A stretch of 64,000 nucleotides of DNA, taken from the NCBI GenBank assembly GCA_964481345.1, contig CAYZTC010000001.1:7766-71765 (forward strand), written 5' to 3'. The notes under the pieces are model-generated. The model did not search any database and had not been told where the DNA came from. It saw only the letters and a program-made list of their open reading frames with translations. Positions 4,096 to 61,655 of the stretch are shown piece after piece. Within the stretch, counting starts at the first letter, position 1. Each line of letters opens with the position of its first letter. This DNA is from an uncultured Candidatus Saccharibacteria bacterium. GTDB taxonomy: Bacteria; Patescibacteriota; Dojkabacteria; SC72; JAFGCJ01. Position numbers and translations under genes: made by a program.

Positions 4096-4731
4096 TCACT
4101 CAATCGCCACCACGTAAGTACCGATCTCTAAAATATCAAACAGCGCTATTATATCAGCATTATTATGATATACACAACCCAAACTGAACGGTGTGCCTAT
4201 CCTATCAGGCTCATTTGTGCCATGAAGGGCTACATTTGTCTCAATCCACACTCCACTCACATATCTATCCAACATCATCATTCTAGACCCATACAGCGGC
4301 GCTACCTCATATCCAATCTTGCTTGCAACCCTCCACAAGCTTTTCGTCATCTCCCTATCTGTCCCTCCCTGACCAGTTGAAACTCTATAAGAGGAGATTA
4401 ATGAGCCCAATTTATCAAAAACATACTCCTTTTGCTCAGAAATATCTACCACAACAACATAATTTGACCGTTCAACATTTCCTAGAAAACTAGTCAAATA
4501 ATCTATGGCATAATCGTACTTTGATTGGTAGACAAGCCCTACTGAGCTATTTTGAACAGAATCCTCTACAATATCAATTTCAGCTTGAGAACCCACATTA
4601 TGCCAAGAAAGCTTGTTATATAAGTAAGAATTAAGTATGTATAAACCCGCAAAACTAGCCAAAATCATCAAAAATGTACCTATTTTGCTCTTCATGATAA
4701 TATTATGCCTCAATTGACATAAAATCTCCAA
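4096..4731 (-). CDS. L,D-transpeptidase (YkuD-domain) with N-terminal signal/TM
   Basis: The C-terminal segment …VALHGTNEPDRIGTPFSLGCVYHNNADIIALFD matches the L,D-transpeptidase catalytic motif H-G-(S/T)…S-x-G-C-(I/V)-(R/H). Confidence 0.7.
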   Translation of the reverse strand: MEILCQLRHNIIMKSKIGTFLMILASFAGLYILNSYLYNKLSWHNVGSQAEIDIVEDSVQNSSVGLVYQSKYDYAIDYLTSFLGNVERSNYVVVVDISEQKEYVFDKLGSLISSYRVSTGQGGTDREMTKSLWRVASKIGYEVAPLYGSRMMMLDRYVSGVWIETNVALHGTNEPDRIGTPFSLGCVYHNNADIIALFDILEIGTYVVAIE

Positions 4732-6408: not shown

Positions 6409-7188
6409 TTAATGAATAGTTGTACATTCAACCTTTTCCCCTGCAACAATCTTTTTAATAATGGAAGGATCTCTACCATCCATAAGACATAGAGAGACTC
6501 TGTTATCCTTAGCAAGCCTAGCACCCAAAATATCAACTGGTACATTCTGTCCTGGCTTATGACCATCTCCTTCGAACATTCCAAGATATTTATCCCAGGT
6601 TAGGTCATACGGAAGTGACGTAGTTATATCATCAATTGGAGTCGCATCCGGGTTTTTATTCGGATCTTCTGTATATACATAATCAATATTGGAAAGCTTA
6701 AACACTCTATCTATTTCCAACTTCGAAGCGAGCACGAACGCATTCAAATCTGTACTAGCACCATTCACAAACCCACCGCTAACTAAGATAGATTTATCAC
6801 CATTCTTCCAGTCGTTAAAATCGGATGTGATACCCTCAATTCCCACTTCAAGACTATTTGCAAATACCCCAATTCCCAGAGTTCTTCTGAATACCAACGA
6901 ATCAACATCCAACAATATTCTAACAAGCTCAGCGTTCATCCACGTTGCTACAATACCAATTCTGTGCTGATCTATTTCCTCTTTGTTACCTATCGAAATT
7001 GCAATATCCCTGTAACGCCTAGAAAGGTTTCCACCACCCGTCACTATTACAAGCTTCAAATCAGAGTTTTTAGAGTCTGCAAAAATATCTTTCACTGAAT
7101 GAGCTAGCTTTTCTAAAAAATCCTCATCTGCAATTTTACCCTTGGGTGAAATAAGTGAACCCCCAATCTTAATAACTACATACCTCAT
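6409..7188 (-). CDS. pyrH: Amino-acid-kinase family protein, probable uridylate (UMP) kinase
   Basis: MRYVVIKIGGSLIS… N-terminus and VIVTGGGNLSRRYRDIA…IGIVATWMNAELVRILL resemble the PyrH GGGN and MNAL motifs. Confidence 0.5.
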   Translation of the reverse strand: MRYVVIKIGGSLISPKGKIADEDFLEKLAHSVKDIFADSKNSDLKLVIVTGGGNLSRRYRDIAISIGNKEEIDQHRIGIVATWMNAELVRILLDVDSLVFRRTLGIGVFANSLEVGIEGITSDFNDWKNGDKSILVSGGFVNGASTDLNAFVLASKLEIDRVFKLSNIDYVYTEDPNKNPDATPIDDITTSLPYDLTWDKYLGMFEGDGHKPGQNVPVDILGARLAKDNRVSLCLMDGRDPSIIKKIVAGEKVECTTIH

Positions 7189-8063
7189 TAAATATACAAG
7201 ATCAAAATTATTACCATAATGGCAAAAATTATATATTGAGACATAGTGTCACTATCATATGTTCCCTCCAACTTGTGATGCCAAAACACATCTGCTAAAT
7301 AATAACCTACCGTAATAAGTAATGATAAAGTTGCAATATTTAATAATGGTATCTGCATAACTACGAAAGATCCAATTCCAACAAGAAGTGCCGTAAACAA
7401 AGAGTATAAAAGTATTTTTACTTTCAACTGGTCAAACATAACTACCATCATAGCTACAAGAATAAACGATATTGCACTAGTTCCAATATATATCATCCAT
7501 CTTGGCCAGCCATGATAAAAAATTGAGTTTACAAATATATCAGTATAAAAGTAAAAAACAATTATGTTCATGAAATCAAAGATGTACTTTGTGCTTCTTG
7601 ATATGCTGTAAATTTTTCTATAAGTGCATGAAATATTGTAAAAAAGTATAAGAAATCCTATTGTGACAATCAAAACAGCAACCTGATCAAGTACCCTTAC
7701 TCTGTTGTAAAAGATGAACAACGCACCTGAAATATAAAAAAGACTAGGTAAAACCAGATGATACAAAAATGACTCATTCCATATTCTTTTTCTCCAATGC
7801 TTCACCTTCACTGAAAAGGGAGTCATATACTCATTCACTCTTGAATATAGAAGCTCAAAGATAACAACAAAGAACCCTATTACAAATAATAGCCAGAAAT
7901 TTATGTAAGACTTAACCTGAACTAAAATAAGCATAAATTCAAATACAGCAAAGAGACAAACAGAATAAAACAAGCTCCTTCTATAAATATTTGAAAGCCG
8001 AACTTTTTTCCTTGTAGATTTCTTTTTACCCGCCATATTATGAGATGGTACCGGTTGCTCCAA
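7188..8063 (-). CDS. Hypothetical polytopic membrane protein
   Basis: 291 aa with at least 8 predicted TM helices and no recognisable motif. Confidence 0.4.
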   Translation of the reverse strand: MEQPVPSHNMAGKKKSTRKKVRLSNIYRRSLFYSVCLFAVFEFMLILVQVKSYINFWLLFVIGFFVVIFELLYSRVNEYMTPFSVKVKHWRKRIWNESFLYHLVLPSLFYISGALFIFYNRVRVLDQVAVLIVTIGFLILFYNISCTYRKIYSISRSTKYIFDFMNIIVFYFYTDIFVNSIFYHGWPRWMIYIGTSAISFILVAMMVVMFDQLKVKILLYSLFTALLVGIGSFVVMQIPLLNIATLSLLITVGYYLADVFWHHKLEGTYDSDTMSQYIIFAIMVIILILYI

Positions 8064-9429
8064 TTAATAATGTCACTCCCAAGATAATAACCCAAAGACT
8101 TGTCTTGAACAATGTTTTACCATGACTCTCAAGTTTCTTTAGTTTATACAAATAATAAATATCCAGTCCAAAAAGTATTGCTAGGCCAACTATTATCACT
8201 TTGTTAAAAATTGATGATAAAGATCCTAAACTAAGCCCCGAGTCTTCTGACGAACTTACTAACGCCCTCACCTCATTTGCAATACCCAAACTAGAATAGT
8301 TTCCACTTGTATCAGAAGCCACAATCTCACACTCCCCCAATGTATCACCAGAAGTCACAAGAAGTGATCCTTCGTAATACCCCTCCTCTGATTTCTCAAG
8401 ATCTACCCTTTTATCTCCGATAGTCAGACTAACACCAGCTGGCTCTTCCATAAGTTCTACTCTTACAACCAGTATTCCTACCTCATATGTTATTTCTAAA
8501 CTCTCCTTATCAAACTCTGGAGGTACTGTATCCACAGTAAACCCGACACTATCTGAAACTCCAGCTATACTTCCCTCAGCATGAACATCATATTCACCCT
8601 CATCCCATTTTTCTTCAGGCCTATAATCCCATATCCCCTCCTCACACACCGCATCACCCAAAAGCTCTTCATCATTAAATATCTCTATGTCCTGTTCACT
8701 TACTCCAGAAGTTCCTTCAAGATCAAAATCATTTTCGTTAATAAAGTCACCATCCTCAGGATAAGTTATGTCTAAACTATCATCTATTGGCTCTGGAACA
8801 GGCTCTGGAGTGGTACTTGGTTGATCTTGAGAGTCACCTTGGGTATCAGTATCACCATTAGTCTCAGATGTTTCTGGAAGTACTGAGGTCGCTCCAAACA
8901 TTTGAACTACAAGAATGACATTTTCACCAAGAAGAGTACCAGGAACAGCAGCAATACCGATATTTTTATAATTAGGACTCATAATATTCTCTCTGTGAGA
9001 CTCACTCGCCATCCATGCACTATGCACTCCCTCCGAAGTAGTGAAGCCTTTAGCTAAATTCTCTCCTGCATATACATAACTGTAGCCAGCAGCAAGAATA
9101 AACTGCCAGGGGGTTTCTCCGTTCGGACCATAATGATCCCAGTACTGCTCATCAAACATATTTTGCGCCTTAGCATGAGCAGCAGATACTAACCTAGAGT
9201 CCTGACTTAGAGCATTTAATCCAGTAGCCTGCCTTTCTTGATTACAGAGAGTGATAAGCTCAGAGCCAGAGACCGCTCCAGCAGACACAGGAGTACCGAA
9301 TGCACCAGAAAACATATTAACAAGAAGTATCAAAACAGTATAAACAAAGAAGGCACCCTTTCTTAGTAGACGAGGCTGATAATCATTTTTCTTTGTAGGA
9401 ATAATCCAATCCACGAAAGACAGTTTCAT
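8038..9429 (-). CDS. Secreted CAP/SCP/PR-1-like domain protein with acidic linker and C-terminal TM anchor
   Basis: CAP-domain signature (…AHAKAQNMFDEQYWDHYGPNGETPWQFI…YAGENLAKGF…HSAWMASESHRENIMSPNYKNIGIA), followed by a D/E/T-rich linker and C-terminal hydrophobic segments. Confidence 0.6.
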   Translation of the reverse strand: MKLSFVDWIIPTKKNDYQPRLLRKGAFFVYTVLILLVNMFSGAFGTPVSAGAVSGSELITLCNQERQATGLNALSQDSRLVSAAHAKAQNMFDEQYWDHYGPNGETPWQFILAAGYSYVYAGENLAKGFTTSEGVHSAWMASESHRENIMSPNYKNIGIAAVPGTLLGENVILVVQMFGATSVLPETSETNGDTDTQGDSQDQPSTTPEPVPEPIDDSLDITYPEDGDFINENDFDLEGTSGVSEQDIEIFNDEELLGDAVCEEGIWDYRPEEKWDEGEYDVHAEGSIAGVSDSVGFTVDTVPPEFDKESLEITYEVGILVVRVELMEEPAGVSLTIGDKRVDLEKSEEGYYEGSLLVTSGDTLGECEIVASDTSGNYSSLGIANEVRALVSSSEDSGLSLGSLSSIFNKVIIVGLAILFGLDIYYLYKLKKLESHGKTLFKTSLWVIILGVTLLIGATGTIS

Positions 9430-10696: not shown

Positions 10697-12241
10697 TTAT
10701 TTTGCAGTACTCATCGCTCTGCTCTCCCTAACGATAGTAACCTGTACAGTGCCTGGAAATGTCTGAGTCTTTTGAATTTCATCAGAAATCTTTTTTGCAA
10801 GCACAACAATCTCATCATCATCGACGATATCAGGCTTAACTATTACTCTCACCTCTCTACCTGCATGTATTGCATAAATTTCAGAGGCTTTATTACCAGA
10901 TATTTTTTTGGCAACATCTTCTATACTCTTAACCCTTTTTACATAGTTCTCATAGCTATCTTTCCTTGCCCCAGGTCTTGCACCAGAAATTGCATCTGCA
11001 AGGTAAACAACAACAGCCTCAATAGTTTCTGCCTCCACATCCAGATGATGTGCCTCAATTGCATTCACAAGCTCCTCTGGAAGTTTGTACTTTCTCGCAA
11101 TTTCAGCACTTATGTGATGATGCTGACCCTCAACTTTATGAGAGACAACTTTCCCAACATCGTGAAGTAAGCATGCCCTTTTTACTAAGGAAACATTTGC
11201 ATCAACCTCTTTTGCAATTGCCTCGCCAAGTCTAATTACCTCAATAGTATGCTCTACCAAGGTCTGCCCGTAACTAGACCTGTATTTCATTTTTCCAAGA
11301 AGTTTAAGTAGCCCATCATCTATAGACTGCCAGTCAGCTTCGTCTGCAAGAAGTTGCCCAGTTTTTCTAATCTCCTTAGAGACTTCAGATTTTGCTTTTT
11401 CAACAAGCTCCTCGATCCTTCCAGGATGAATCCTTCCATCTTTTATCAACGTATTCATCGTGATCACTGCAATATGTCTTCTTAACGGATCAAAAGAGGA
11501 AATTGCAATTGCTTCTGGTGATTCATCAACTATCACATCTACCCCCGTAGCTTTTTCAAATGCTCTAATATTCCTTCCTTCTTTTCCAATAATCCTTCCC
11601 TTGATTTTTTCATCATTAATCTTTATCGTAGAAACTGTAGTTTCACCTACATAATCAGTCGCTACACTTTGCATAGCGTTAACTAGGATCTCCTTTGCCT
11701 TATCTTCTGATTCACTTTGAACTTTCTTTTCTGCCTCCCTAATCTTTTGAGCAGTGTATTCATTTAGATCCTCTCCCACCTGTTTTTTTAGAAGCTCTTC
11801 TGCTTCAGACCTAGAAAGTTTTGAGATCTCTTCTAGTTTTTTTGCTAGATCTTTTCTGTCCACAAGTATCAGATTCCTTTCCTTTTCAAGCCTAGTTCTA
11901 TATTTATCAATCTTGTCTAGTTGAGTTTGTACGTTTGCTTCTTTCTCAATCAACCTTGACTCTCTACCAGAAATCTTTTTATCAATTTCGTGAGCTTCAT
12001 TTCTGATCCTTCTTGCTTCGCCTTTTGCACTTTGGACAATTTGGTTTGATTTGTTTTCTGTTTTTTCCAGAATTTGTTTTGCTTTTCCACTAGCAATCTT
12101 TACTGCTTCACCCTCAGTCATTTTCGGCTTTCTAATTACACTCTTTTTAATAACACTTCTAGGCTTCTTAGTTATTAAATAAGCCGTAGTACCTATACCT
12201 GCGACTGAGATGATACCTAACACGACAATTAATGCTGTCAT
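10697..12241 (-). CDS. rny: Ribonuclease Y
   Basis: 514 aa. N-terminal TM, coiled-coil, KH domain and HD domain (…RACLLHDVGKVVSHKVEGQHHHISAEIARKY…AHH). Confidence 0.85.
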   Translation of the reverse strand: MTALIVVLGIISVAGIGTTAYLITKKPRSVIKKSVIRKPKMTEGEAVKIASGKAKQILEKTENKSNQIVQSAKGEARRIRNEAHEIDKKISGRESRLIEKEANVQTQLDKIDKYRTRLEKERNLILVDRKDLAKKLEEISKLSRSEAEELLKKQVGEDLNEYTAQKIREAEKKVQSESEDKAKEILVNAMQSVATDYVGETTVSTIKINDEKIKGRIIGKEGRNIRAFEKATGVDVIVDESPEAIAISSFDPLRRHIAVITMNTLIKDGRIHPGRIEELVEKAKSEVSKEIRKTGQLLADEADWQSIDDGLLKLLGKMKYRSSYGQTLVEHTIEVIRLGEAIAKEVDANVSLVKRACLLHDVGKVVSHKVEGQHHHISAEIARKYKLPEELVNAIEAHHLDVEAETIEAVVVYLADAISGARPGARKDSYENYVKRVKSIEDVAKKISGNKASEIYAIHAGREVRVIVKPDIVDDDEIVVLAKKISDEIQKTQTFPGTVQVTIVRESRAMSTAK

Positions 12242-12507
12242 CTCAATAAATAATTAAATTAAGCGCAAGGAAATAGTGGGGAATACTAAACACTCACAAA
12301 TAGCCACTAGGGCTTCATATAAGGCTACTTTCGAGGTATATTAGTCATTTTTTTGTTCCAAATTTCAATATACTTTCAATAATCGTCTTTTTTTTCTCTA
12401 CTCTATGTCTACCTTACAAAAACACTTACATTAAAACACTATCCTCACTTATTCCTAACATGCGAATGATATCACTATGAATACCTCCGGTCAATAACTT
12501 ACACAGA

Positions 12508-13530
12508 TTACTCATCCTGAAGGCTCTTCATTAAATCTGAATAGTAGGTAAGATTATGGATGGTAGCAAGACTTTGACATGCAATCTCTCCAGATCTAAA
12601 AAGATGATGAAGATATCCTCTTGAGTACTTTTGGCAAGCAAGACAGCCACATTTACTATCGATTGGCTTCAAATCATATTTATATCTAGTATTTTTTATT
12701 CTAATAATTCCTTTCCTTGTATATAAAAACCCATGTCTTGCATTTCTTGTAGGAAGTACACAATCAAACATGTTGTATCCCATTTTGTAACATTTTTTTA
12801 TATCATCAGGAGTACCTACTCCCATTGCATACTTTGGTTTATCATCCGGAAGAAGATTTACAGTATACCTCAAAATGTCTGAAACTAATCTTCTATCTCT
12901 ATCAATCGGCCATCCCCCAAAGCAGTATCCATCAAATCCAATACTTTTAAGTTGATCTGCACTTCTTTCCCTTAAAGATTTATGACTCCCTCCTTGTACA
13001 ACTGCAAACACTTTTACCTTACCTGAATATTTGGGATATTTTTTTATCAAATGATTTTTTCCTCTCTCCGCCCAATAAGTAGTGTTGTCAACCGACTTTT
13101 CTGCATTTTTAACGTCAACACCCTCAGATCTACAATCATCCAGCATTATCATCACATCTGAACCTATTGCCACTTGCATATCCACAGATATTTCAGGAGT
13201 AAGTTTGTGCTCACTTCCATCAACTGGTGACTTAAATACTGCACCATCATTAGTAACCTTACCCATTTTCTTTTTTTCATGTATTAAAGAAAAAACCTGA
13301 AATCCCCCAGAATCTGAGATCACTTTTCCACTCCAATTCATGAAACTCCTAATTCCACCTAGTTTCTTCATCCCATCAAGCCCAATTTTAGTAAGCAAAT
13401 GAAAAGTATTAACAACAAGCATCCTCGTACCTGTCTCTTCTACCTGCTGGGAATTCAACGTTTTTACTGCCCCCAAAGTAGCATCTGGCATAAATACTGG
13501 TAGTTTAAATCCTAGAAATTTTGAAATCAT
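12508..13530 (-). CDS. tgt: Queuine tRNA-ribosyltransferase (tRNA-guanine transglycosylase)
   Basis: TIM-barrel Tgt motifs (MLDDC, VQGG, GVGTPDD) and the zinc site CGCLACQKYSRGYLHHL. Confidence 0.8.
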   Translation of the reverse strand: MISKFLGFKLPVFMPDATLGAVKTLNSQQVEETGTRMLVVNTFHLLTKIGLDGMKKLGGIRSFMNWSGKVISDSGGFQVFSLIHEKKKMGKVTNDGAVFKSPVDGSEHKLTPEISVDMQVAIGSDVMIMLDDCRSEGVDVKNAEKSVDNTTYWAERGKNHLIKKYPKYSGKVKVFAVVQGGSHKSLRERSADQLKSIGFDGYCFGGWPIDRDRRLVSDILRYTVNLLPDDKPKYAMGVGTPDDIKKCYKMGYNMFDCVLPTRNARHGFLYTRKGIIRIKNTRYKYDLKPIDSKCGCLACQKYSRGYLHHLFRSGEIACQSLATIHNLTYYSDLMKSLQDE

Positions 13531-14591
13531 ATCGGTCCACCAATAAACAAGTCACCTTCTTGACGTTGAAGATCATCCTCAAGTTCTTCGGTTTCTTCAG
13601 GTTCTTCTTTTTCTTCTGAAACAATGACGTAGTTTGGATCTATAGGAGATACTATCATCAACACATCAGCACCAAATATCTGATCTAAAGAATCAATCTC
13701 TGCAACACCACTTCCATATCCAAGATACATAGGCAGAGCATATCCATTATCTTGATCAAAATATACCCAAGAACTTAAAAGCTCACTGATTCTTACCTCA
13801 GAAAGATAAGCTTCCTCTTGTATGGCTGGATGTAAATCAGAAAAACCGCTATCTGTTACTTCAAAACTTATGCTTTTGGGAAATGATTCAATGGTAAAAT
13901 TTTGAGATAACTCTTCGTCGTCCATTATGGGTACTCTTTCATATAATTCCACACCTGATAACATGAGTGCAGACATACTGTTTACCTTCCCGAAATTAGT
14001 AAGTTCTATCTGAAGTGCAGAACCATTTAAATGGTAGCTTGAAATATATGAGTTATAACCATCTACTTCATAGTCAATGTCAATTATTGCACTTCCATCA
14101 ATCACACTTGAAAGTACTCTAAATTCAGGAAGATCAGAAAAACCCTTATCATGAAGCTGTTTTACTGCATCATCAATATTATCATCTGAAATTTCACTAT
14201 CAAGCTGTATTCCAACATCTAGTGGAGTTTCAAAGGTAAAAAATGCAAGTCCTGTAGATGGATAAAAATAACAGTATCTAGACTCATCCCCATATTTATA
14301 TGAATCCTCATACTCATCACTATCAGTACTAAGACCTAACAACTGAAGAAGAGACTCAAAGTCCGATTTGTCATATGTATCTACCTGAAACACAGGAGCT
14401 GTACCATCAAGATTCCCATCAGCCAAAAGAGTTATATCTATCTCTGAATCATATGCCGTTAACGGAATCTCCACAGGAGTAGCCTTCAAAAAAGTCCCTC
14501 GTTGAAACCAGTAAATAAAAACAATAGAGGCAAGGAAGAATGCACCAACCACATACCAATATTCTTTTATAAAGATTATTATTTTCTTCAT
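13527..14591 (-). CDS. Hypothetical secreted/anchored acidic protein (cassette gene 4)
   Basis: 354 aa with an N-terminal TM (VVGAFFLASIVFIYWF), then a D/E/S-rich ectodomain. No motif recognised. Overlaps the tgt start by 4 nt. Confidence 0.4.
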   Translation of the reverse strand: MKKIIIFIKEYWYVVGAFFLASIVFIYWFQRGTFLKATPVEIPLTAYDSEIDITLLADGNLDGTAPVFQVDTYDKSDFESLLQLLGLSTDSDEYEDSYKYGDESRYCYFYPSTGLAFFTFETPLDVGIQLDSEISDDNIDDAVKQLHDKGFSDLPEFRVLSSVIDGSAIIDIDYEVDGYNSYISSYHLNGSALQIELTNFGKVNSMSALMLSGVELYERVPIMDDEELSQNFTIESFPKSISFEVTDSGFSDLHPAIQEEAYLSEVRISELLSSWVYFDQDNGYALPMYLGYGSGVAEIDSLDQIFGADVLMIVSPIDPNYVIVSEEKEEPEETEELEDDLQRQEGDLFIGGPI

Positions 14592-14600
14592 GTGTATTTC

Positions 14601-17600
14601 CTAATTACACTTATTTCCTATTGTTGCTCCAGTAATAAATGAACGTACCTGACTTGCACATGCAGTACCAGAAAGTGCCTTACCTTTAGCTATTTCATCC
14701 AGCTCGGACTTAGTACACTTCCCTGAATCAAGTAACGACTGGGATACCTGAAGTCCCCTCATACAATACCCTGACGAAGTAGAAAACATATAATGACCAC
14801 CGTTCCCTGATAAATGCTCCGCACCCCACTCCCTATGACGAAGATAAGGCCAATTTGAAATACTTCCATTACTATGCTGTACCTGATGTGCAATCTCATG
14901 TCTAAATAAACCAGTCAGCATTGCACTACTTGCACTCAATATTTCATCTGGTAAGCACGATATTACCCCTGCTCCACTCCAACACCATGCTCCCGCTTCA
15001 GTTAACCTTCCGTACAATCCAGATCCAGGATATAAAAACTCTAGTCTTGCATTCACACCAAACTCTGCTGCTACTTGATTCAAAATATCAAATGCTGTAC
15101 CAGAAAGTACACTTCCACCATATGACATACTTCCTCCAGTATAGTTTGGATATACCGACCCACCCGTACCAACACACAGCTGACCTGTCGCTCTACTTGG
15201 ATCCTTTATTTTTGAAGGTAGTGAGGCACCTGGCTTAATCCATTGATATATCTCTTTTATTCCGGGGTTATCACCTTTTCCATTAAGATACTCAGGTCCA
15301 GTAATGCCGTTTACATCCCGAGTAGCATCGCAAGTACCAGTCAGATATCTTGTAGCCCATGATGTCCAGTAATCAAGTCCTGGACAGCTATAGTTGTGGC
15401 TGAGTGCCATAAAGGTATTTACTTGAGAATTGAAGTCCTCAGCTGGTGTAACACCATCGTTAATCCCAAAATCTTGCACAGGAAGACTGCTGGAGTCGTA
15501 GTTGCTGGCTCCGGACTCATGTAGCCAGATTAATAGTGCAAATGCAGGATCGACACCTTTGGACAGAGCCCTACATATCACATCGTTATAGCATTCATCT
15601 GCATAGTTAACACCGCCTGTCCATCTATCCGCAAGATCCCCGAAAACCTCTTTACTTATTATTCCAGGAATATTTTGATCTGGAAGTGTTTGATTACAAT
15701 TGATTTTTCCATCGCTATAGTCAGGAAAATCAAAATCCACCGGGCCATACACAAGATGACCACTTGTAAAATCAACCGGCTCACTTAGATATGGCTGGGC
15801 TAGAGTCTGCTTTCCAAAAAAACTTAACCCTGCCGATCCTAAAATTAAACCAATACTAAATAATCCGAGAACTATCAAGGCTATAAACTCAATTAATGGC
15901 TTCAAGAAAAATTCTCCAAGTTTCCATCCCATTTTTATTGCCCAATCAGCAACAAAAGCTGCTATATTCCCTATTCCAGGAATAATGCTACCAAGTGCTT
16001 GAACAAGTACCTTCTGAATAACACTAGTAAGAAGTTGCTTAAAGGGCATCTTAAGCAATTGCCCTACAGTCATCTGGGAAAAATCTGAGAGATATCTCTG
16101 CGCAAACTTTGCAAAAGGCCTCTTCAAAGCATTAGCGATACCTCTTCCAAGTTTATTATTTGCAAAGTCCTCAAGTTTCTTTTTGACGTGAAAAAGAAAC
16201 TGACCTGGCATAATTTTTGCCAATCTTTCTGCAATATGAGGGGGCATCCTTCCCATATCACTAAGTTTTTTCCAGAATCTCCCATCCCAAAAGATACCTT
16301 TTGCGATATTTACTGGATGCCAGTAGTAATATGCATTTGCTACCTTGCCCAGTATATTGTTCTTCCCCTCAAGCCAGCTAAGTCCAAACTCACGATCACC
16401 TGGAACGATTCTACTTTCATATTTAGTAGCAAAATGGTCTAGTGCACCACTTAGCCAGAGATCATTCTTATAATCAAATAGGGTTCCCATCATTAAGCTT
16501 CCAAGAAACTTTCCCTTCAGCTCATCCTTTATCCACGACCTAAGGTACATCCCCTGACCTATCCTTCCCCCTATAGACCCTAAAAAGCCTCCTCTTCCAC
16601 CCAGCACTCTCTGAACAAACTGGCTTCTAAAGGCTAAAGCCTTATTAATCTGTCTCTGGGTAAAATTGCCGCTAGATCTCATGTACCCAATTTCCTCATC
16701 CAGCTTTCTTATCACGCTTTGAGTAGATGCATATCGAATTCGGGCTGTTGTATCAGAATCCTTTTCTTCCACAACTCTCTGGCCAGCTACATATCTGACT
16801 GTTTTTTCTATCTTAGTATAATACCCAAGATCATCATAAATACTAGAGTCACCCCATATCCCATCCACAGATCTAACTAGGTTATCACCAGAGATATTTA
16901 TTCCAGCTCTTGGCTGGATACTGGCTAAATGATTTCCTAAGGCCTGTCTTCTCCGATTTTTATCAGTTAAACTACCAGTATCTCTAACTCCAGTGATAAA
17001 CTGGCTCCTCAAACTCCTCTTTTCTGCACTAGTCAGTAGAATTCCATTCTCCCTTTCGTACTGCTTTATTGCTGCATCTATCTCTGAGTTCCAACCTCTA
17101 GACAGAGCACCTACACTTCCAGCCCTTGGCTCAGCACCAAGTCCTGTCTGATCACCAGTTACTGCATCCCAATGCGACGATAGATCCCTCGACCGTCCAC
17201 GCGTCACCCTTCCACCACCAGGATGGTCTGCCCCAAAACGAAGGGGACTGTACGGACCATAGCCAGTAGCATCATGCATCGTGCTACCAAGATCAAAGGC
17301 AAACCCAGTACTAAAACCAGCATGTTTAGCGTATAGGGAAGAATAAGCTGATTCAAGATATCTCAAATTACCTGTCCATTTGGCAAGTTTTTGATAATCT
17401 TGATACTTTTTCCAGGCAGCATTTATTACTCCCCTTGGATTTGCTACAAATTGAGCAAGAGAGGCAGGTCCAACCTGCATCTTAAATCCTGGAACAGGCT
17501 CTACTTTTACTCGGGATGCAAGGTCTATTTGAAAATTGAAGTCATCAATAAGCTTTTCTGCCGGATATACTACAGGGCGACCTGCAATTTCTGCCAATCC

Positions 17601-17723
17601 TTTTCCTACTCCTGACAGTCCAGAAATATCTACTCCCTCAAGCGGATTTCCACCTTTTGCTTTTTTCGTAGAAAAGATAAAATCAAAAAGCGAACTGTAT
17701 ACTTCATCTTTATCTTTTGGCAT
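14601..17723 (-). CDS. Giant membrane-associated protein with HExxH zincin-like motif and lysozyme/SLT-like segment (cassette gene 3)
   Basis: 1040 aa. Central TM helices (…IEFIALIVLGLFSIGLILGSAGLSFFG…), a C-terminal Cys-rich region with …AFALLIWLHESGASNYD… (lytic-transglycosylase-like) and …LFRHEIAHQVQH (HExxH). No NTPase motifs. Local GC content appears higher than in flanking sequence. Confidence 0.45.
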   Translation of the reverse strand: MPKDKDEVYSSLFDFIFSTKKAKGGNPLEGVDISGLSGVGKGLAEIAGRPVVYPAEKLIDDFNFQIDLASRVKVEPVPGFKMQVGPASLAQFVANPRGVINAAWKKYQDYQKLAKWTGNLRYLESAYSSLYAKHAGFSTGFAFDLGSTMHDATGYGPYSPLRFGADHPGGGRVTRGRSRDLSSHWDAVTGDQTGLGAEPRAGSVGALSRGWNSEIDAAIKQYERENGILLTSAEKRSLRSQFITGVRDTGSLTDKNRRRQALGNHLASIQPRAGINISGDNLVRSVDGIWGDSSIYDDLGYYTKIEKTVRYVAGQRVVEEKDSDTTARIRYASTQSVIRKLDEEIGYMRSSGNFTQRQINKALAFRSQFVQRVLGGRGGFLGSIGGRIGQGMYLRSWIKDELKGKFLGSLMMGTLFDYKNDLWLSGALDHFATKYESRIVPGDREFGLSWLEGKNNILGKVANAYYYWHPVNIAKGIFWDGRFWKKLSDMGRMPPHIAERLAKIMPGQFLFHVKKKLEDFANNKLGRGIANALKRPFAKFAQRYLSDFSQMTVGQLLKMPFKQLLTSVIQKVLVQALGSIIPGIGNIAAFVADWAIKMGWKLGEFFLKPLIEFIALIVLGLFSIGLILGSAGLSFFGKQTLAQPYLSEPVDFTSGHLVYGPVDFDFPDYSDGKINCNQTLPDQNIPGIISKEVFGDLADRWTGGVNYADECYNDVICRALSKGVDPAFALLIWLHESGASNYDSSSLPVQDFGINDGVTPAEDFNSQVNTFMALSHNYSCPGLDYWTSWATRYLTGTCDATRDVNGITGPEYLNGKGDNPGIKEIYQWIKPGASLPSKIKDPSRATGQLCVGTGGSVYPNYTGGSMSYGGSVLSGTAFDILNQVAAEFGVNARLEFLYPGSGLYGRLTEAGAWCWSGAGVISCLPDEILSASSAMLTGLFRHEIAHQVQHSNGSISNWPYLRHREWGAEHLSGNGGHYMFSTSSGYCMRGLQVSQSLLDSGKCTKSELDEIAKGKALSGTACASQVRSFITGATIGNKCN

Positions 17724-17743
17724 TTATACAAAACTACACCAGT

Positions 17744-19159
17744 TTAGCTACCAAACAAACCACCTACTAATGGAATCTTACTTGCAGACTTTTGAATATC
17801 TTGAGAAGCCTTTGCTGATCCAGGAGACTGCTTAAGTTGAAATATATCCTCTACTAGTGTAGGTGCACTTGCTGCAACAAAGTAGCCTGCAAGTATAATG
17901 GCACCCTTCAACTGAATAACTGGGCTTCCAGTACTTGATCCCCCTCCCATAAATCCTGAAAAATTTCCACCCAGTGGATTCGTAATATTCGGACTTCCAA
18001 TGTATCTGAAAAGATTGATTATCAAGAACACAAACGGAAATACAAGTGAATTTACAAGAAGTCTTTTTATCCAGTTTGTTACATTAGTCTTACCCCCCGG
18101 AAGCGACCCAATCAACAGATATATTGGTCCAAGTACTAGATCCATTACAATTTTTATGTATGACATCACTAAAGTGAAAAATAGCTTGAAGGCCGCATAA
18201 AGTGCCACAAATCCCAATATTACAGTAAGAATTATTTTCAAAGAACCAGTTACAATATCAACCAAAACCTTAATTGCACCACTTAAAAATCCTGTTTGCG
18301 GAGTAGCCCAAGTAGCACCTGTTGCACTACCGAATGCATCCCGTGCCATCTGGAGTGGACCACCAATTGGTACAGAATCAAATCCAGGTAGTGCACCATC
18401 CAACTGATTATCTATTACACGAGTAACAAGTCGGCTAATATCTATTGCAAACCCTACTATTGCAAAACTGAAAGTGACAAGCACTAGTCCTACCAATATC
18501 GAGGGAAGTGAATTCATTACAGTAACAGCCACCTGACCCCCAATTTTTGTCCTGAACATTATCATAAATCCTGTAGCAACAAGTATTAAGACAAACCCAA
18601 CATATGCAATATTTCTAAACATTAACCATACTTGCTCTACTCCCAAGTCTTGAAGATGAGAATATCCGGTATCAGCTGCAAGCACTGAAACAGATGCCCC
18701 GTCAGCACCAGGAATCCACTGCCTTGCAAGATGTGAGGGAATATCAACCCCAGGCGGATTGTACAATAGTGCAGTTACCTGCTCATCAGTAGTATTTATC
18801 AAACCTGCTCTAGTTGAAGAAGACAAATCAGAACGGTTTACCCCCGCCGAAACACCCCCACCATCAAATGAGTCAGTCCCAAATTGAAGAACTGCCATAT
18901 CTATAAAGAAACTATTCCTTGTGGCTGTACCAGTAGTAGCACTACTCATGGTATCACCAGTAACATACACTGTAGCATTTTGACCCTCTTGGAAGACCTC
19001 TGCTGCATTTAAGAATGGTTCTGTCGTCTCATCATCCTGTGCAAGAACAACTGAAAAAGAACTCAGTACAAATACTTGAGTCAGTATGAGAGCAATAATC
19101 GATGGAAGATACTTAGTATTTTTCTTAAACCATCTGAATATTTTCATTATTTTGTTCAT
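17744..19159 (-). CDS. Polytopic membrane protein with signal peptide and S/T/G-rich ectodomain (TrbL/VirB6-like topology) (cassette gene 2)
   Basis: 471 aa. N-terminal signal, then a ~170-aa extracytoplasmic domain, then at least 6 TM helices. Confidence 0.4.
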   Translation of the reverse strand: MNKIMKIFRWFKKNTKYLPSIIALILTQVFVLSSFSVVLAQDDETTEPFLNAAEVFQEGQNATVYVTGDTMSSATTGTATRNSFFIDMAVLQFGTDSFDGGGVSAGVNRSDLSSSTRAGLINTTDEQVTALLYNPPGVDIPSHLARQWIPGADGASVSVLAADTGYSHLQDLGVEQVWLMFRNIAYVGFVLILVATGFMIMFRTKIGGQVAVTVMNSLPSILVGLVLVTFSFAIVGFAIDISRLVTRVIDNQLDGALPGFDSVPIGGPLQMARDAFGSATGATWATPQTGFLSGAIKVLVDIVTGSLKIILTVILGFVALYAAFKLFFTLVMSYIKIVMDLVLGPIYLLIGSLPGGKTNVTNWIKRLLVNSLVFPFVFLIINLFRYIGSPNITNPLGGNFSGFMGGGSSTGSPVIQLKGAIILAGYFVAASAPTLVEDIFQLKQSPGSAKASQDIQKSASKIPLVGGLFGS

Positions 19160-19183
19160 CTATATAGTAAATAAATTAAGATC

Positions 19184-20656
19184 TTAGTTAGCTTGCCCAT
19201 CAATTATCAACTGGCAAGATTTATATTCATCACTACTAATTTCAGTACAACTTCCATTAATCACACAATCACATCTCTTTGTCACATACTGCATATATGA
19301 AAAGTAGCCAAACGGCCCATCATATTCACAGAAGTTAAACCTGATTGGTGGCTCTCCCTCCTCAGCAATGACTGTAGCATAATTTACCTCTGGATCACAT
19401 ATCGAAGATCCAAGCTCACTACTTTGCCATACTGCAAACATATAATCAGGCCATACACAAGCAGCCTTTGCAATTTTACCAGAACACTCGACCTTAACCT
19501 GACATGGAGTAGCAACATATTTTCTAACACTCCCACCTCCAGGAATTGTCCTTGCATCTATTTTTATCCTTCCTGCGTTACTTGTATGTTCCTCCATATT
19601 AAGAAGAACTCTAGCATCAGTACTTCCAGTACAAATCCCCATTTTTATACAATATTCAGTCGCTTTTACAAAAATACTCCACACCCCTCCCCATCCTAGA
19701 AACCCATGGTCATCGATACAGGATCTTTCAGTAGTACCTATCACCACTCTTAAATCAGAATAGTCGTCGCAAGATGCAGTATCATCAGGATATAGGTATT
19801 CCACAGTTTCAGCTACGGACATAGGTACTGGCTCATTCCCAGATATTATCCTGGGATACAGCGTTTTAGCAGAATAGGTTGGACTTGCACATCCCTTATC
19901 ACCAATGAGAGTGCTCCCCGGTGCTGATTGCAAGCACTGAGGGCTATACCATGTCTGAGTTTCTCCCTTATGCGTTGTCTTTTCTACAAAATCTAGTGAA
20001 TAATCTATACCAGCCCGAGGTGACCCATCATTCGTCTCAAATACGCTACTACCTGGTGCCTCATATATTGCCCCATAGTTATTACCCGCTACCGTCGGGG
20101 TACCATCCTTTGCATTTACCACAGCCCCTCCTGAATCTTTACCTGCAACATATGGCCATTCTCCGGTATGAATGTCATATCTATTATCTGTGCTTCCGCC
20201 CACAAATTTATTATGCCCATTCCAATACACAGGGTAGGTTATCTCGTGAACACTTAGTATACAATCTTTACTTACCCATAAACTCTCAGTGATGCCTTGT
20301 ACTGATGCAGATAAAGTAAAAGAGGCAGAATCACACACATTATCAATTGCTGGAACTTTCACTCCGTCACAATCTTCCCTCGAAGTGCCAAGTACACTTC
20401 CCGATCCACACTCATAACACGCATTTTCCTCCTCTTCCAATATATTTAGTGTTGATAAACGTGGAACATCCTGATCTTCCAAAATCCTTTTTTCCTCACT
20501 TACGCTTGAATTATCACTTAATGCTCCTGTCTCAATAAAATCCCTCAAAAATGAAAACATTATAACAAATGCAACTCCACCCACAAGAATCAGAAGAGCC
20601 ATCATTTTTTCAGATTTAAAACTCACCTTTAGCTTTGAGAAAATAAGCTTTTTCAT
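19184..20656 (-). CDS. Secreted cysteine-rich protein (cassette gene 1)
   Basis: 490 aa with an N-terminal TM/signal (MMALLILVGGVAFVIMFSF) and more than 25 Cys. No motif recognised. Confidence 0.4.
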   Translation of the reverse strand: MKKLIFSKLKVSFKSEKMMALLILVGGVAFVIMFSFLRDFIETGALSDNSSVSEEKRILEDQDVPRLSTLNILEEEENACYECGSGSVLGTSREDCDGVKVPAIDNVCDSASFTLSASVQGITESLWVSKDCILSVHEITYPVYWNGHNKFVGGSTDNRYDIHTGEWPYVAGKDSGGAVVNAKDGTPTVAGNNYGAIYEAPGSSVFETNDGSPRAGIDYSLDFVEKTTHKGETQTWYSPQCLQSAPGSTLIGDKGCASPTYSAKTLYPRIISGNEPVPMSVAETVEYLYPDDTASCDDYSDLRVVIGTTERSCIDDHGFLGWGGVWSIFVKATEYCIKMGICTGSTDARVLLNMEEHTSNAGRIKIDARTIPGGGSVRKYVATPCQVKVECSGKIAKAACVWPDYMFAVWQSSELGSSICDPEVNYATVIAEEGEPPIRFNFCEYDGPFGYFSYMQYVTKRCDCVINGSCTEISSDEYKSCQLIIDGQAN

Positions 20657-20689
20657 CTCCTTAAAGTTTACACTAGAACAATATGCCTG

Positions 20690-21712
20690 TTAAGTAATCA
20701 GCATACTGTCTCCATAGCTTAAAAACCTACATTTTTCTTTTTTAGCCTCTTCATATGCCCTCATAATAAGGCCCCTTCCAGCAAATGCTGATACTAAAGT
20801 CAAAAGACTAGTCCTAGGTGCATGAAAATTAGTGACTAGTACATCCACAACCTTAAACTTGTATCCAGGATAAATAAATAAACTGGTTTCCCCTTCATAT
20901 CGCTTTATTTTGTCACTGTCAATTGCAACACTTTCAAGTGCTCTTACTACAGTTGTACCAAATGCCCATACTCTACCTTTACATTTATTCACACAATCAA
21001 CAGCTGACTTTCCAATAGATATTTCTTCTGGATGAATTTGAAAGTCTTCTACTTTTTCGGTATTTATTGGAGCAAAAGTCCCCCATCCAACCTCAAGATC
21101 CACATAACAAACCTTCGCACCTCTATCCTTTATCCCCTTTAAACTCTTTTCAATAAGATTAAGGCTTGCAGTTGGAGCGGCGACAGAATTATCATCCTCA
21201 GCAAACACGGTGTTATACCTAATTTTATCTGAATCAACATCCTTTCTTTTGATATACGGAGGAAGCGGGACATGACCATACTTGCTCATTATTTCTTTTG
21301 CATTCCTTGCTTGTATCATGAATCCAGGATCACTCTCTTTCCTTTCAACAATTTCCAATTCATACTCATTCAATAACAGCCTGTCACCTATCTTTACATT
21401 CCTAGCCCTTCCGACAAGACAATGCCATAGGCCCTTTTCAGCATTTTTTAAAAATAATACTTCTACCCTTCTTCCCGTCCTTTTTACAGTTGGAAAGATT
21501 CTTGCCCATAATACTTTTGTTTTATTCAGTACTACCACATCATCTTTTTTAATATAGTCAGGAATATCACTGTAATGCTTATGCTGAATACTCCTAGTTT
21601 TTCTGTTTAACACTAACAACTTTGTATCACCTCTTTTTTCTGGTGGATTTTGTGCAATAATCTCTTTTGGCAACTCATAATCAAACAAACTCGTTTTCAT
21701 AAACTTCAACAA
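20690..21712 (-). CDS. queA: S-adenosylmethionine:tRNA ribosyltransferase-isomerase
   Basis: …TSLFDYELPKEIIAQNPPEKRGDTKLLVL… matches the QueA signature and length (340 aa). Confidence 0.8.
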   Translation of the reverse strand: MLKFMKTSLFDYELPKEIIAQNPPEKRGDTKLLVLNRKTRSIQHKHYSDIPDYIKKDDVVVLNKTKVLWARIFPTVKRTGRRVEVLFLKNAEKGLWHCLVGRARNVKIGDRLLLNEYELEIVERKESDPGFMIQARNAKEIMSKYGHVPLPPYIKRKDVDSDKIRYNTVFAEDDNSVAAPTASLNLIEKSLKGIKDRGAKVCYVDLEVGWGTFAPINTEKVEDFQIHPEEISIGKSAVDCVNKCKGRVWAFGTTVVRALESVAIDSDKIKRYEGETSLFIYPGYKFKVVDVLVTNFHAPRTSLLTLVSAFAGRGLIMRAYEEAKKEKCRFLSYGDSMLIT

Positions 21713-21752
21713 TAATGTAAAATTCCAGCATTAACATAGAAATTATAAAGTA

Positions 21753-22682
21753 ATGAAACCAGTTAATACAGTTTTCATAGGTTCATCTTTTGAGGGAAAA
21801 GAAATTCTCAAATCACTGCATGGTAAAAAAGAATACAACATTACAGGAGTCATAACTCAACCGGATAGACCAGTTGGAAGAAAGAAAGTACTTACCCCTA
21901 CTGACATTAAATCAACTGCACTCAACCTCAGAACAGAAATATTCGAACCAGACGGTAAAGAAGAAAATTACAAAGAGATAATTGAAAAAACTCAGCCAGA
22001 ACTAGTAATATGCATCGGATTTGGAGAATTTATCCCTAAGGTTATTCTTGAATACCCCAGATATAAATGTTTAAATATTCATTATTCCCTTTTACCAAGG
22101 CTCAGAGGAGCATGTCCTGTACAATCTGCCATACTGGAAGGATTTAAAAAAACTGGTGTTTCAATTCAGATAATGGAGGAAAAAATGGATATAGGTCCAA
22201 TCATTGGACAAAAAGAGATAGAAATTGCACCCAAGGAAACAACAGCAACTCTTAAGAAAAAACTAATTCCAGCAGGCCATGACTTACTCTTCGAAATACT
22301 CCCTAAATGGATAAAAGGAGAGATCCAACCAAAAGAACAAAATCATAGCAAAGCCACATACTGTTATAAAAATGATATATCTAAAGAAACTGCTGAAATA
22401 AGCTGGGAAATTGAAGATCCGGAACAGGTTGTAAGAAAAATAAGAGCACTCATTCCTTGGCCAGTAGCATGGACTGCTCTTAATAAAAAAAGGTTGAAGA
22501 TATTTGAGGCTGAACTTGTTGAGGACGATACAAAATCAAAACCTGGAGAGATACTCAATATCAACAATGAACCAGCAATCTCGACAAAAGACCAAAAAAC
22601 AAAACTAAAGCTCCTGTCAGTCCAAATGGAAGGAAAAAATAGAATATCAGGTAAGGACTTCATTGTGGGATACAGAACCTAG
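21753..22682 (+). CDS. fmt: Methionyl-tRNA formyltransferase
   Basis: Formyltransferase N-domain (…LNIHYSLLPRLRGACPVQSAIL…) plus C-terminal domain; 309 aa. Confidence 0.8.
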   Translation: MKPVNTVFIGSSFEGKEILKSLHGKKEYNITGVITQPDRPVGRKKVLTPTDIKSTALNLRTEIFEPDGKEENYKEIIEKTQPELVICIGFGEFIPKVILEYPRYKCLNIHYSLLPRLRGACPVQSAILEGFKKTGVSIQIMEEKMDIGPIIGQKEIEIAPKETTATLKKKLIPAGHDLLFEILPKWIKGEIQPKEQNHSKATYCYKNDISKETAEISWEIEDPEQVVRKIRALIPWPVAWTALNKKRLKIFEAELVEDDTKSKPGEILNINNEPAISTKDQKTKLKLLSVQMEGKNRISGKDFIVGYRT

Positions 22683-22927
22683 TAGTAATCATTAAAAAAA
22701 GATTAAAATTGACACTGAGGTCTAATCTCACGAAAACACTGTTCAAACAGCACAAAGCTCGATTTTCATAAAACTACAAACTGAAAAACTTAAACATTTG
22801 ATGCTACAAAGGGGAAACCTTCAGGTTAAACCTCAATTTGTCCCATCATAACAGCCTTTATTTAAAATTTTTATAACAAACACCACAAAATTCATAGAAA
22901 ATACTGTCAACCTCGGTTTTCAGGAAA

Positions 22928-23421
22928 AGCTGGACTAAGCAGTACATAAGCCGAATTCTGTCTAGATGACCATTTATCTTCCAATTCGCCAGAGGCGAAT
23001 GGACCCACAGCCGAACTCAAATTTTCAAGATGAGTGCGACATAGGGTGCGGCACTAGGCCTTGCTCCAAGCGGGGGTTACCACGCACTCTTCGATTACTC
23101 TCAGAGCCGGTGGTCTCTTACACCACCTTTTCACCCTTCCCGCCTTCGTTCTCGTCTCCGACTCGAACTACGGCGAGGTGAATCCCCACACAATAAATAA
23201 ATATTTTGGGGCTCGCCTCGTCGCAGCCTCAGCGAAGCTGAGAGCGAAGACGGGGGTTTGCTTTCTGTTGCCCTTTTATCCAAAAGATCACTCCCTTCCT
23301 GCTTTCACAGGCACTTACTCCGAATCGTCGGAGCCACAAGGAGTCCGGACTTTCCTCCCTTCGGCAAGCTCAGAGCAAGCCCCTCACTCACCAAACGGCG
23401 GTCATCAGTAATACTTAGTCC
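22928..23421 (-). ncRNA. rnpB: RNase P RNA (bacterial type)
   Basis: The minus strand contains the P4 5' strand GGGAGGAAAGTCCGGACTCC, GGGTGAAAAGGTGGTGTAAGAGACCACC (P10-P12-like), the P4 3' strand ACAGAATTCGGCTTATG, and a P1 pairing GGACTAAGTA/TGCTTAGTCC. GC-rich in an AT-rich genome, so the three listed + strand ORFs inside are spurious. Confidence 0.8.
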
Positions 23422-61652: not shown

Positions 61653-61655
61653 AAT

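Follow-up and report, generated by a model that had tools for sequence, protein, structure and literature searches.

A membrane-anchored protein with predicted GH73-like and minigluzincin-type domains, encoded in a relocatable envelope module of a Dojkabacteria genome

The window analyzed here is a stretch of 64,000 nucleotides (positions 7,766 to 71,765 of contig CAYZTC010000001.1) from an uncultured bacterium of the ultrasmall Patescibacteria, deposited as Candidatus Saccharibacteria and placed in the Dojkabacteria by GTDB. On its minus strand, at 14601-17723, lies an ATG-to-stop open reading frame (ORF) for a protein of 1040 amino acids (aa), hereafter the target. We consider it on balance probable that the target is a bifunctional hydrolase that opens the cell wall and belongs to a four-gene envelope module related to type IV secretion systems (T4SSs). 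An earlier note on this DNA, made by a model from the letters and their translations, had described the same protein without its strand, and had seen in it transmembrane (TM) helices, a lysozyme/SLT-like segment and a zincin-type HExxH motif. The protein is real, as the ORF call recovers it, and its start codon is backed by the N-terminus of P0003, a homologue with 43% identity (MAGKREEVYSSLFD… versus MPKDKDEVYSSLFD…). The two segments behind the enzymatic proposal lie at aa 728-742 (ALLIWLHESGASNYD) and aa 942-946 (HEIAH).

A word-indexed homologue search of 5.8 billion clusters returned 3 relatives (the same outcome twice), and an exhaustive profile search of 1.84 billion representatives returned 435 at E ≤ 1e-3. 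These 435 relatives fall into three modules, namely an N-terminal domain with membrane anchor (aa 1-640; ~25 proteins), a domain designated MID (aa 674-860; >100 proteins, with architectures other than that of the target) and a C-terminal domain designated C (aa 861-1040; ~37 proteins). P0003 itself (847 aa) lacks aa ~678-857, corresponding to MID, and keeps the HExxH region nearly unchanged. Neither the whole target nor four sub-fragments of it gave an SLT, lysozyme or peptidase match in Pfam and NCBIfam. Searches of PDB sequences with phmmer and hmmsearch likewise found nothing significant for the whole target, MID, C, the family of the N-domain and TM anchor, or the families F6 and ORF354/F17 of the neighbouring genes described below; the sole real PDB sequence match in the family searches was to M23 heads of orthologues. 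Significant SLT or peptidase matches are thus missing from Pfam, NCBIfam and PDB sequence profiles, an outcome that the earlier note had itself named as speaking against its proposal and that, taken literally, does so. Since AlphaFold2 models recovered the folds, we read the failed sequence profiles as divergence beyond the reach of hidden Markov models (HMMs), with the predicted folds present. No curated family includes MID or C, which are two domain families so far without annotation, carried on a scaffold that is itself new.

The model of MID, predicted from the family alignment (predicted local distance difference test, pLDDT, 93.3; predicted template-modelling score, pTM, 0.90), was compared with the PDB by Foldseek, and the matches were nearly all lysozyme-superfamily enzymes. 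The best was the GH73 domain of a C. difficile endolysin (8yxk_A; E 2.7e-3, prob 0.99), with template-modelling scores of 0.46/0.55 over 155 columns at 14% identity; a GH23 chitinase, MltE and goose-type lysozymes came next at E 0.8-5. The motif of the family follows the pattern W-x-H-E-S-G-A-S-N-Y…D-F-G-I, in which W733, E736, S740, D751, G753 and Q767 are invariant in 105/105 MID domains and S737 is kept in 101/105, and the four Cys are conserved at ≥92%. E736 lies at the C-terminal end of a model helix (aa 726-737), with Ser next to it, and is the predicted general acid. GH23/SLT enzymes have as hallmarks G-L-M-Q and A-Y-N-x-G downstream of E-S. The A-Y-N-x-G motif is absent from the MID family consensus, which has (E/Q)-D-F-G-I-(H/N) after the catalytic motif. 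When MID was aligned with E. coli FlgJ by hhalign, the best register placed HESGASNY…DFGI over LESGWGQ…LFGV, at a probability of 0.07% that is not significant. Among 36 family members, the SLT profiles of Pfam and NCBIfam found no match, and the Pfam Glucosaminidase family (PF01832), whose threshold MID does not reach, touched 1/36 at E 0.03. Because of the structural matches and the E-S-G…D-F-G-I pattern, we assign MID, as modelled, to the lysozyme superfamily, closest to GH73 and not to SLT/GH23. Of the earlier proposal, the modelled lysozyme-like fold and the putative catalytic Glu at a helix end followed by Ser hold up, whereas its SLT flavor does not, the top match being a GH73 enzyme, the motif looking GH73-like and no SLT profile matching.

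MID resembles GH73 enzymes (FlgJ; C. difficile Ecd09610, the protein of 8yxk) in that its model is matched best by one of them, and its motif looks like their E-S-G…F-G-I/V pattern with the Glu at a helix end, but it differs from them in its low identity, its four conserved Cys and its occurrence nearly only in genomes labelled as candidate phyla radiation (CPR). The motif was found in 83 GTDB species-representative genomes, nearly all of them with such labels (Shapiro-, Dojka-, Woese-, Gottesman-, Collier- and Amesbacteria, and CPR3). Many of the contigs that carry MID (L027, L032, L035, L040, L044, L048, L049 and others) are labelled 'uncultured Gammaproteobacteria', and one 'Methanoperedens'; as their gene order is of CPR type, as in the Shapirobacteria loci, these labels look mis-assigned.

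For C, the model from the family alignment reached the same values (pLDDT 93.3, pTM 0.90). H942, E943, H946, E965, W966, G967 and A968 are invariant in 35/35 C domains. In the model HExxH lies on a long helix (aa 933-951) and E965 on the next one (aa 961-972), 19 residues after H946 and thus within the ~18-25 residues at which gluzincins have their third ligand. By chance, a sequence of the target's composition would be expected to hold 0.012 HExxH motifs, and 1.1% of shuffles hold one. The top 7 PDB matches of the model in Foldseek were all minigluzincins (selecase and projannalysin; prob 0.84-0.99, root-mean-square deviation 2.8 A over 78 aa). As the E-values range from 0.01 to 0.5, the zincin assignment leans on the consistency of the matches and not on any single significant score. 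Lower-ranked matches were ERAP1, BlaR1, ZMPSTE24 and SPRTN, and comparison of the model with a viral library brought up SprT-like, M48 and IrrE-like proteins. At the sequence level C came above no threshold of any curated peptidase family (Pfam/MEROPS-type profiles); sub-threshold matches, which agree with the structural ones, were to the active-site helix of ColH (E 0.1), to MJ1213 (E 0.58) and, in 7/30 members, to eCIS_core/DUF4157 (best E 0.042). Like minigluzincins (selecase MJ1213, projannalysin) and other small zincins (SprT, eCIS_core/DUF4157), C has a core of ~80 aa with a β-sheet, an HExxH helix and a Glu helix; unlike the minigluzincins, to which it is 11-13% identical, it has an extra Cys-containing subdomain, is predicted to be extracellular and is fused to a predicted wall glycosidase. 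Judged by its model, C is a minimal gluzincin-type metallopeptidase, and the earlier reading of HExxH as zincin-type is borne out by the minigluzincin matches and by the invariance of the four predicted catalytic and zinc-binding residues.

Both domains follow a membrane anchor whose main TM helix (aa 610-636) has a Kyte-Doolittle value of 2.7; ahead of this helix, aa 564-600 form a less strongly hydrophobic hairpin that turns at P-G-I-G. The 'central TM helices' of the earlier note therefore come down to one strong helix, the remainder being only this hairpin. All of the target's Cys residues (12/12) lie beyond aa 676, in agreement with the Cys-rich C-terminal region after the helices that had been pointed out before. 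In 25 family members the density of Cys per 100 aa rises from 0.01 ahead of the main TM helix (N-side) to 3.85 beyond it (C-side), where the counts are mostly even (6, 8 or 12). The family-wide net charge drops from +2.0 ahead of the hairpin to +1.1 in the loop leading to the main TM helix and -0.8 beyond that helix, which fits the positive-inside rule, and the target has no signal peptide. Because of the Cys distribution and the flanking charges we predict an N-in/C-out topology that puts the two enzyme domains on the cell's exterior, where disulfides probably stabilize them. The HExxH motif would then be extracytoplasmic, in neither a cytoplasmic nor a TM segment, as the earlier proposal of a wall-acting enzyme requires. 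A linker of ~37 aa joins the anchor to the enzyme heads.

The large N-domain has a conserved core motif, A-Y-Y-Y-W-H-P-V-N-I-A-K-G-x-F-W-D-G-R (aa 464-482). Scanning species genomes for motifs of the N-domain brought up no relatives, and searches of Pfam, NCBIfam and PDB gave no match for it. It has no Walker A or other nucleotide-binding motif and no detectable relatives beyond its own family. By hhalign it showed no homology to the N-regions of VirB4-adjacent hydrolases, to those of pilin-adjacent and Dojkabacteria MID proteins, or to 19 neighbourhood families; the weak exceptions concern the membrane hairpin only, with 34% probability to Shapirobacteria-type proteins and 71% to family F39. 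A sub-threshold touch to DUF6531 at aa 203-238 in the Pfam/NCBIfam scans recurs in 1/25 relatives and was dismissed.

Among the relatives that share the N-domain and anchor, 11/25 bear a Peptidase_M23 domain (best E 5.7e-14) at the position that MID and C take up in the target, and the head types among same-locus orthologues are M23, C alone, MID with C, and MID alone. From the M23 domains it follows that the heads are interchangeable and that a known wall endopeptidase fills the position of the zincin. Together with the two model folds, the invariant residues and the predicted outside location, these swaps support the earlier suggestion of a bifunctional peptidoglycan-remodelling enzyme.

The target gene lies in a tight cluster. 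Along the minus strand the order is queA, ORF490, ORF471, target, ORF354 and tgt, with gaps of 33, 24, 20 and 9 nt and then a 4-nt overlap (Table 1). The order of the four genes is kept around orthologues with 43% (L001), 28% (L087) and 24% (L086) identity, and across the module at identities of 24-49%. In L090 and L091, a ~440-aa Cys-rich anchored protein, a homologue of F6 (the family of ORF471; E ~1e-62), a hydrolase of the N-domain family and an ORF354 homologue (E ~1e-15) stand together at a second site, between orthologues of the window genes at 49018-50697 (PAP/fn3) and 47761-48975 (SH3_3). Here these two genes are 42 nt apart, so that our window shows the 'empty site' and L090 and L091 the 'occupied site'. 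Given the shared gene order and the joint move to a second site, the four genes behave as one cohesive, relocatable module. ORF490 is fast-evolving: the protein in its slot in L090 and L091 is of like build with no detectable homology, and hhalign found none between ORF490 and either these positional analogues or the neighbourhood families tested. A scan for promoters and terminators across 12000-23000 did not exceed what shuffled sequence gives and therefore says nothing about how the operon is organized. In L086-L088 the CAP-domain gene of the window is also syntenic, as is a sortase gene present only in those relatives.

Table 1. Coordinates in the window of the target gene, its predicted domains and motifs, and the adjoining genes.
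Feature	Position	Strand	Description	Basis
queA	20690..21712	-	upstream flank	Pfam Queuosine_synth E 5e-110; 33-nt gap to ORF490
ORF490	19184..20656	-	N-terminal TM anchor, outside domain with 20 Cys; first module gene	topology, Cys count
ORF471	17744..19159	-	signal peptide, ~140-aa outside segment, 5-6 TM helices; family F6	topology, F6 HMM
Target gene	14601..17723	-	1040 aa; N-domain, membrane anchor, MID, C	ORF call, homologue alignment, profile search
N-terminal domain	16044..17723	-	aa 1-560; Cys-free, predicted cytoplasmic	coordinates verified
Membrane anchor	15816..16034	-	aa 564-636; hairpin 564-581 / 586-600 and main TM 610-636	hydropathy
MID domain	15144..15704	-	aa 674-860; predicted GH73-like glycosidase domain	AlphaFold2, Foldseek
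Putative catalytic motif H-E-S-G-A-S-N-Y	15498..15521	-	aa 735-742	conservation, model
C domain	14604..15143	-	aa 861-1040; predicted gluzincin core and Cys-containing C-terminal subdomain	AlphaFold2, Foldseek
H942-E-I-A-H946	14886..14900	-	predicted zinc-binding/catalytic motif, model helix aa 933-951	conservation, verified coordinates
E965, predicted third zinc ligand	14829..14831	-	R-E-W-G-A-[DE] motif	conservation, model
ORF354	13527..14591	-	N-terminal TM anchor, acidic outside domain; F17 homologue	hhalign
tgt	12508..13530	-	downstream flank; overlaps ORF354 end by 4 nt	Pfam TGT E 1.5e-110

The link to T4SSs comes from the neighbourhoods of MID genes in other genomes, for which the neighbours in 80 loci were clustered and representatives annotated. 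In one arrangement, 7-10 tandem T4SS pilins (PF18895, E 1.4e-10) are followed by a MID protein of ~800 aa and then by F6, with PrgI, a split VirB4 and another large protein further along; F6 directly follows the MID gene in 19 loci, the majority of which have a T4SS-pilin array upstream. In the other (26 loci), PrgI (PF12666) and a VirB4 in split form (TraG P-loop, E 1e-27 to 1e-31) precede a MID protein of ~1000-1200 aa with central TM helices, and F17 comes next. Of these large MID proteins 16 also carry an M23-like head, and MID with M23 is the commonest pairing adjoining VirB4. ORF471 matches the F6 HMM at E 2.3e-60, and ORF354 is related to F17 over its full length (hhalign probability 97.2%, E 4e-11, 286 columns), so the target's MID and both flanking membrane proteins have counterparts in T4SS clusters. 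ORF471 has no Pfam, NCBIfam or PDB match, and it is solely on grounds of gene position and topology that we name it a candidate for a VirB6-like channel subunit.

The pilin arrays in L046-L083 (e.g. L056:4977-8034) are made of paralogues of ~95-130 aa each. Upstream of them, on the opposite strand, is a conserved block that encodes four proteins: one of ~580 aa with a SpoIID domain, one of ~220 aa with a bPH domain, a membrane protein of 74 aa and one of ~625 aa that has no Pfam match. Three Dojkabacteria-type loci (L020, L021, L024) hold two tandem MID genes of ~700 aa each together with families F20, F22 and F23, in a context with no PrgI, VirB4 or pilin families as defined in this analysis. 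MID is thus used outside T4SS neighbourhoods too.

In the mechanism that we propose, the 560-aa cytoplasmic domain and the N-in/C-out anchor would position the two enzyme domains on the outer side of the membrane. MID would cut glycan strands with E736 as general acid, while C would cut peptide stems or cross-links, with Zn bound by H942, H946 and E965 and with E943 as general base. The target would act together with ORF471 (polytopic, the VirB6-like candidate), ORF354 (bitopic) and ORF490 (a Cys-rich surface protein), in a role of the VirB1/PrgK type in which local opening of peptidoglycan lets a T4SS-related apparatus of Patescibacteria span the wall. In this scheme we infer that peptidoglycan is the substrate of both domains, that the target is physically coupled to ORF471 and ORF354, and that this genome has a T4SS.

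The closest functional precedents are PrgK (pCF10), TraG (pIP501) and CwlT (ICEBs1), which are likewise membrane-anchored and outward-facing, combine glycan-cutting and peptidase domains in one polypeptide, and make way through the wall for the apparatus; VirB6-like, VirB3-like and VirB4 genes accompany theirs (PMC12102498). Those proteins pair SLT/GH23 or a muramidase with CHAP, NlpC/P60 or LytM behind a short N-terminal anchor; the target differs from them in its GH73-like domain and minimal gluzincin, its 560-aa cytoplasmic domain, its central anchor and the lack of VirB4 in the window. The T4SSs of Patescibacteria resemble Gram-positive (MPF_FATA) conjugation systems, with pilin arrays present and relaxase and coupling protein usually missing; linkage of a canonical VirB1 to virB4 is rare, and in Microgenomatia VirB6 is found seldom or not at all (PMC12102498). 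Ca. Southlakia epibionticum is reported to require its T4SS cluster for epibiotic growth, and its essential genes include those downstream of virB4 that encode peptidase and lysozyme homologues (PMC12102498; PMC10633639). One of the proteins of this species, SEML1_0006, has two lysozyme-like domains including GH73 (PF01832) and a cysteine peptidase; SEML1_0007, of ~1100 aa, adjoins VirB4 on its downstream side and has a C-terminal LAS-type peptidase; SEML1_0012 is NTF2-like and SEML1_0013 weakly TrbL/VirB6-like (PMC10633639 supplement). The target appears to belong to the same phylum-level system as SEML1_0006 and SEML1_0007, the latter being recognisable only as a C-terminal metallopeptidase head. 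In Southlakia, however, two proteins share the activities between them, with a peptidase of LAS (M15/M23-like) type and a GH73 domain that Pfam recognises, and the likeness to the target is one of annotation. Its queA and tgt genes are adjacent, with no module between them (PMC10633639 supplement). A further comparison is with the Shapirobacteria-type proteins with MID and M23 (e.g. L038:7856-11104), which share with the target a homologous MID, central TM helices, an outside peptidase head and an F17/ORF354 gene that follows theirs. They differ in that their N-regions have no detectable homology to that of the target, their peptidase is M23 and not a gluzincin, and their genes lie beside VirB4 near dnaA/dnaN.

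Several results weigh against a wall-opening hydrolase of a T4SS-related module. The Foldseek E-values are borderline, both for MID (2.7e-3) and for C (0.065), and no Pfam, NCBIfam or PDB sequence profile is significant for either domain. The structural neighbours of C are general proteases, with no dedicated peptidoglycan peptidase among them. The N-domain, which makes up 54% of the protein, matches no family of assignable function, and similarity to VirB6/TrbL is undetectable in ORF471. Lastly, VirB4, PrgI and T4SS pilins were not found in the 64-kb window, and the secretion-system role envisaged in the earlier note stands to the extent that MID, F6 and F17 adjoin T4SS genes in other CPR genomes, but lacks these partners within the window.

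Because only general proteases match C, its substrate is deduced from its position alone, by equivalence with M23. This leaves room for a reading in which the zincin is a protein-processing protease, acting in the maturation of pilins or adhesins or in self-processing, so that the target would combine a glycosidase with a maturation protease. The structural neighbours (selecase, SprT/SPRTN, M48, BlaR1 and IrrE-like proteins) are all general or regulatory proteases, and P0003, the closest complete orthologue, keeps C and has no MID, from which it follows that C does not depend on a glycosidase as partner. Against this reading stand the Peptidase_M23 domain in the equivalent position of 11/25 orthologues, the prevalence of MID with M23 beside VirB4, and the pairing of a glycosidase with a wall peptidase in Gram-positive T4SS hydrolases (PMC12102498); we regard a processing protease as unlikely, though deserving serious attention.

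A somewhat less likely possibility is that the outside heads are directed at the peptidoglycan of a host bacterium, for attachment, feeding or a conduit, and that the heads track the wall chemistry of the host. Varied heads at one locus form a pattern as in polymorphic effectors, the first module gene encodes a fast-evolving Cys-rich surface protein that is swapped for non-homologous analogues, and cultivated Patescibacteria are obligate epibionts (PMC10633639). The TM tether and the short linker, however, would limit the reach of the enzymes, and no cleavage or release signal was identified in the target. Such a use is compatible with a wall-opening hydrolase of the T4SS-related module.

We are more doubtful still of a housekeeping autolysin that remodels the wall during growth and division under control of the N-domain from the cytoplasm, unrelated to secretion. 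The syntenic chromosomal place among queA, tgt, rny and the ribosomal operon and the very short gaps would suit such a function, as would the lack of a T4SS ATPase nearby and the large cytoplasmic domain, which fits regulation from the inside. However, MID, F6 and F17 recur beside T4SS pilins, PrgI and VirB4 in other CPR genomes, and relocation of the module as a unit would be unusual for core division genes. We give about as little credit to a variant in which the module is a self-contained, relocatable envelope-spanning device derived from T4SS parts that works in this lineage without VirB4, PrgI or pilins, with the N-domain coupling or gating it and with heads tuned to the host. That the target is a tape-measure-like or tail-lysin protein of a prophage remnant is very improbable: a long N-region with TM segments and lytic domains is superficially alike and the top Foldseek match of MID is a phage endolysin domain, but no phage genes were found nearby, and we rejected a phage origin since synteny of the locus extends to relatives with as little as 24% identity and MID and C are both absent from 2.9 million viral contigs.

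MID, the minigluzincin head, ORF471/F6 and ORF354/F17 are concrete candidates for missing parts of the Patescibacteria T4SS and for a modular unit that opens the wall with exchangeable heads. A large part of bacterial diversity belongs to the Patescibacteria, and the T4SS is essential for epibiotic life in the one species tested. MID, C, F6 and F17 lie outside Pfam and NCBIfam and are therefore annotated as hypothetical in current genomes.

Further envelope proteins are encoded elsewhere in the window: a G5 and 3D protein (44784-45719, plus strand), the SH3_3 protein at the 'empty site' (minus strand), a YkuD L,D-transpeptidase (4096-4731, minus strand) and the CAP-domain protein (8038-9429, minus strand). 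An ORF of 291 aa with no Pfam match (7188-8063, minus strand) separates the CAP-domain gene from a gene for an amino-acid kinase; its position is kept in L001, L086 and L087 (281-325 aa). At 58629-63975 (minus strand) we found a 1007-aa ORF with no Pfam match, a weak, sub-threshold CHAT-domain protein (374 aa) and, at the window edge, a fragment of an Eco57I/TaqI_C-type N6-methylase; this region could be a defence or restriction island. The ORFs for the ribosomal proteins L13 and L17 (23882-24412 and 24333-25004, minus strand) overlap by 80 nt, and because the Pfam match of L13 begins at aa 45, its true start is probably downstream of the listed GTG. A bacterial RNase P RNA of class A lies at 22932-23417 (minus strand; 156 bits), covering the full model (1-367) in 486 nt and thus carrying ~120 nt of insertions relative to the consensus.

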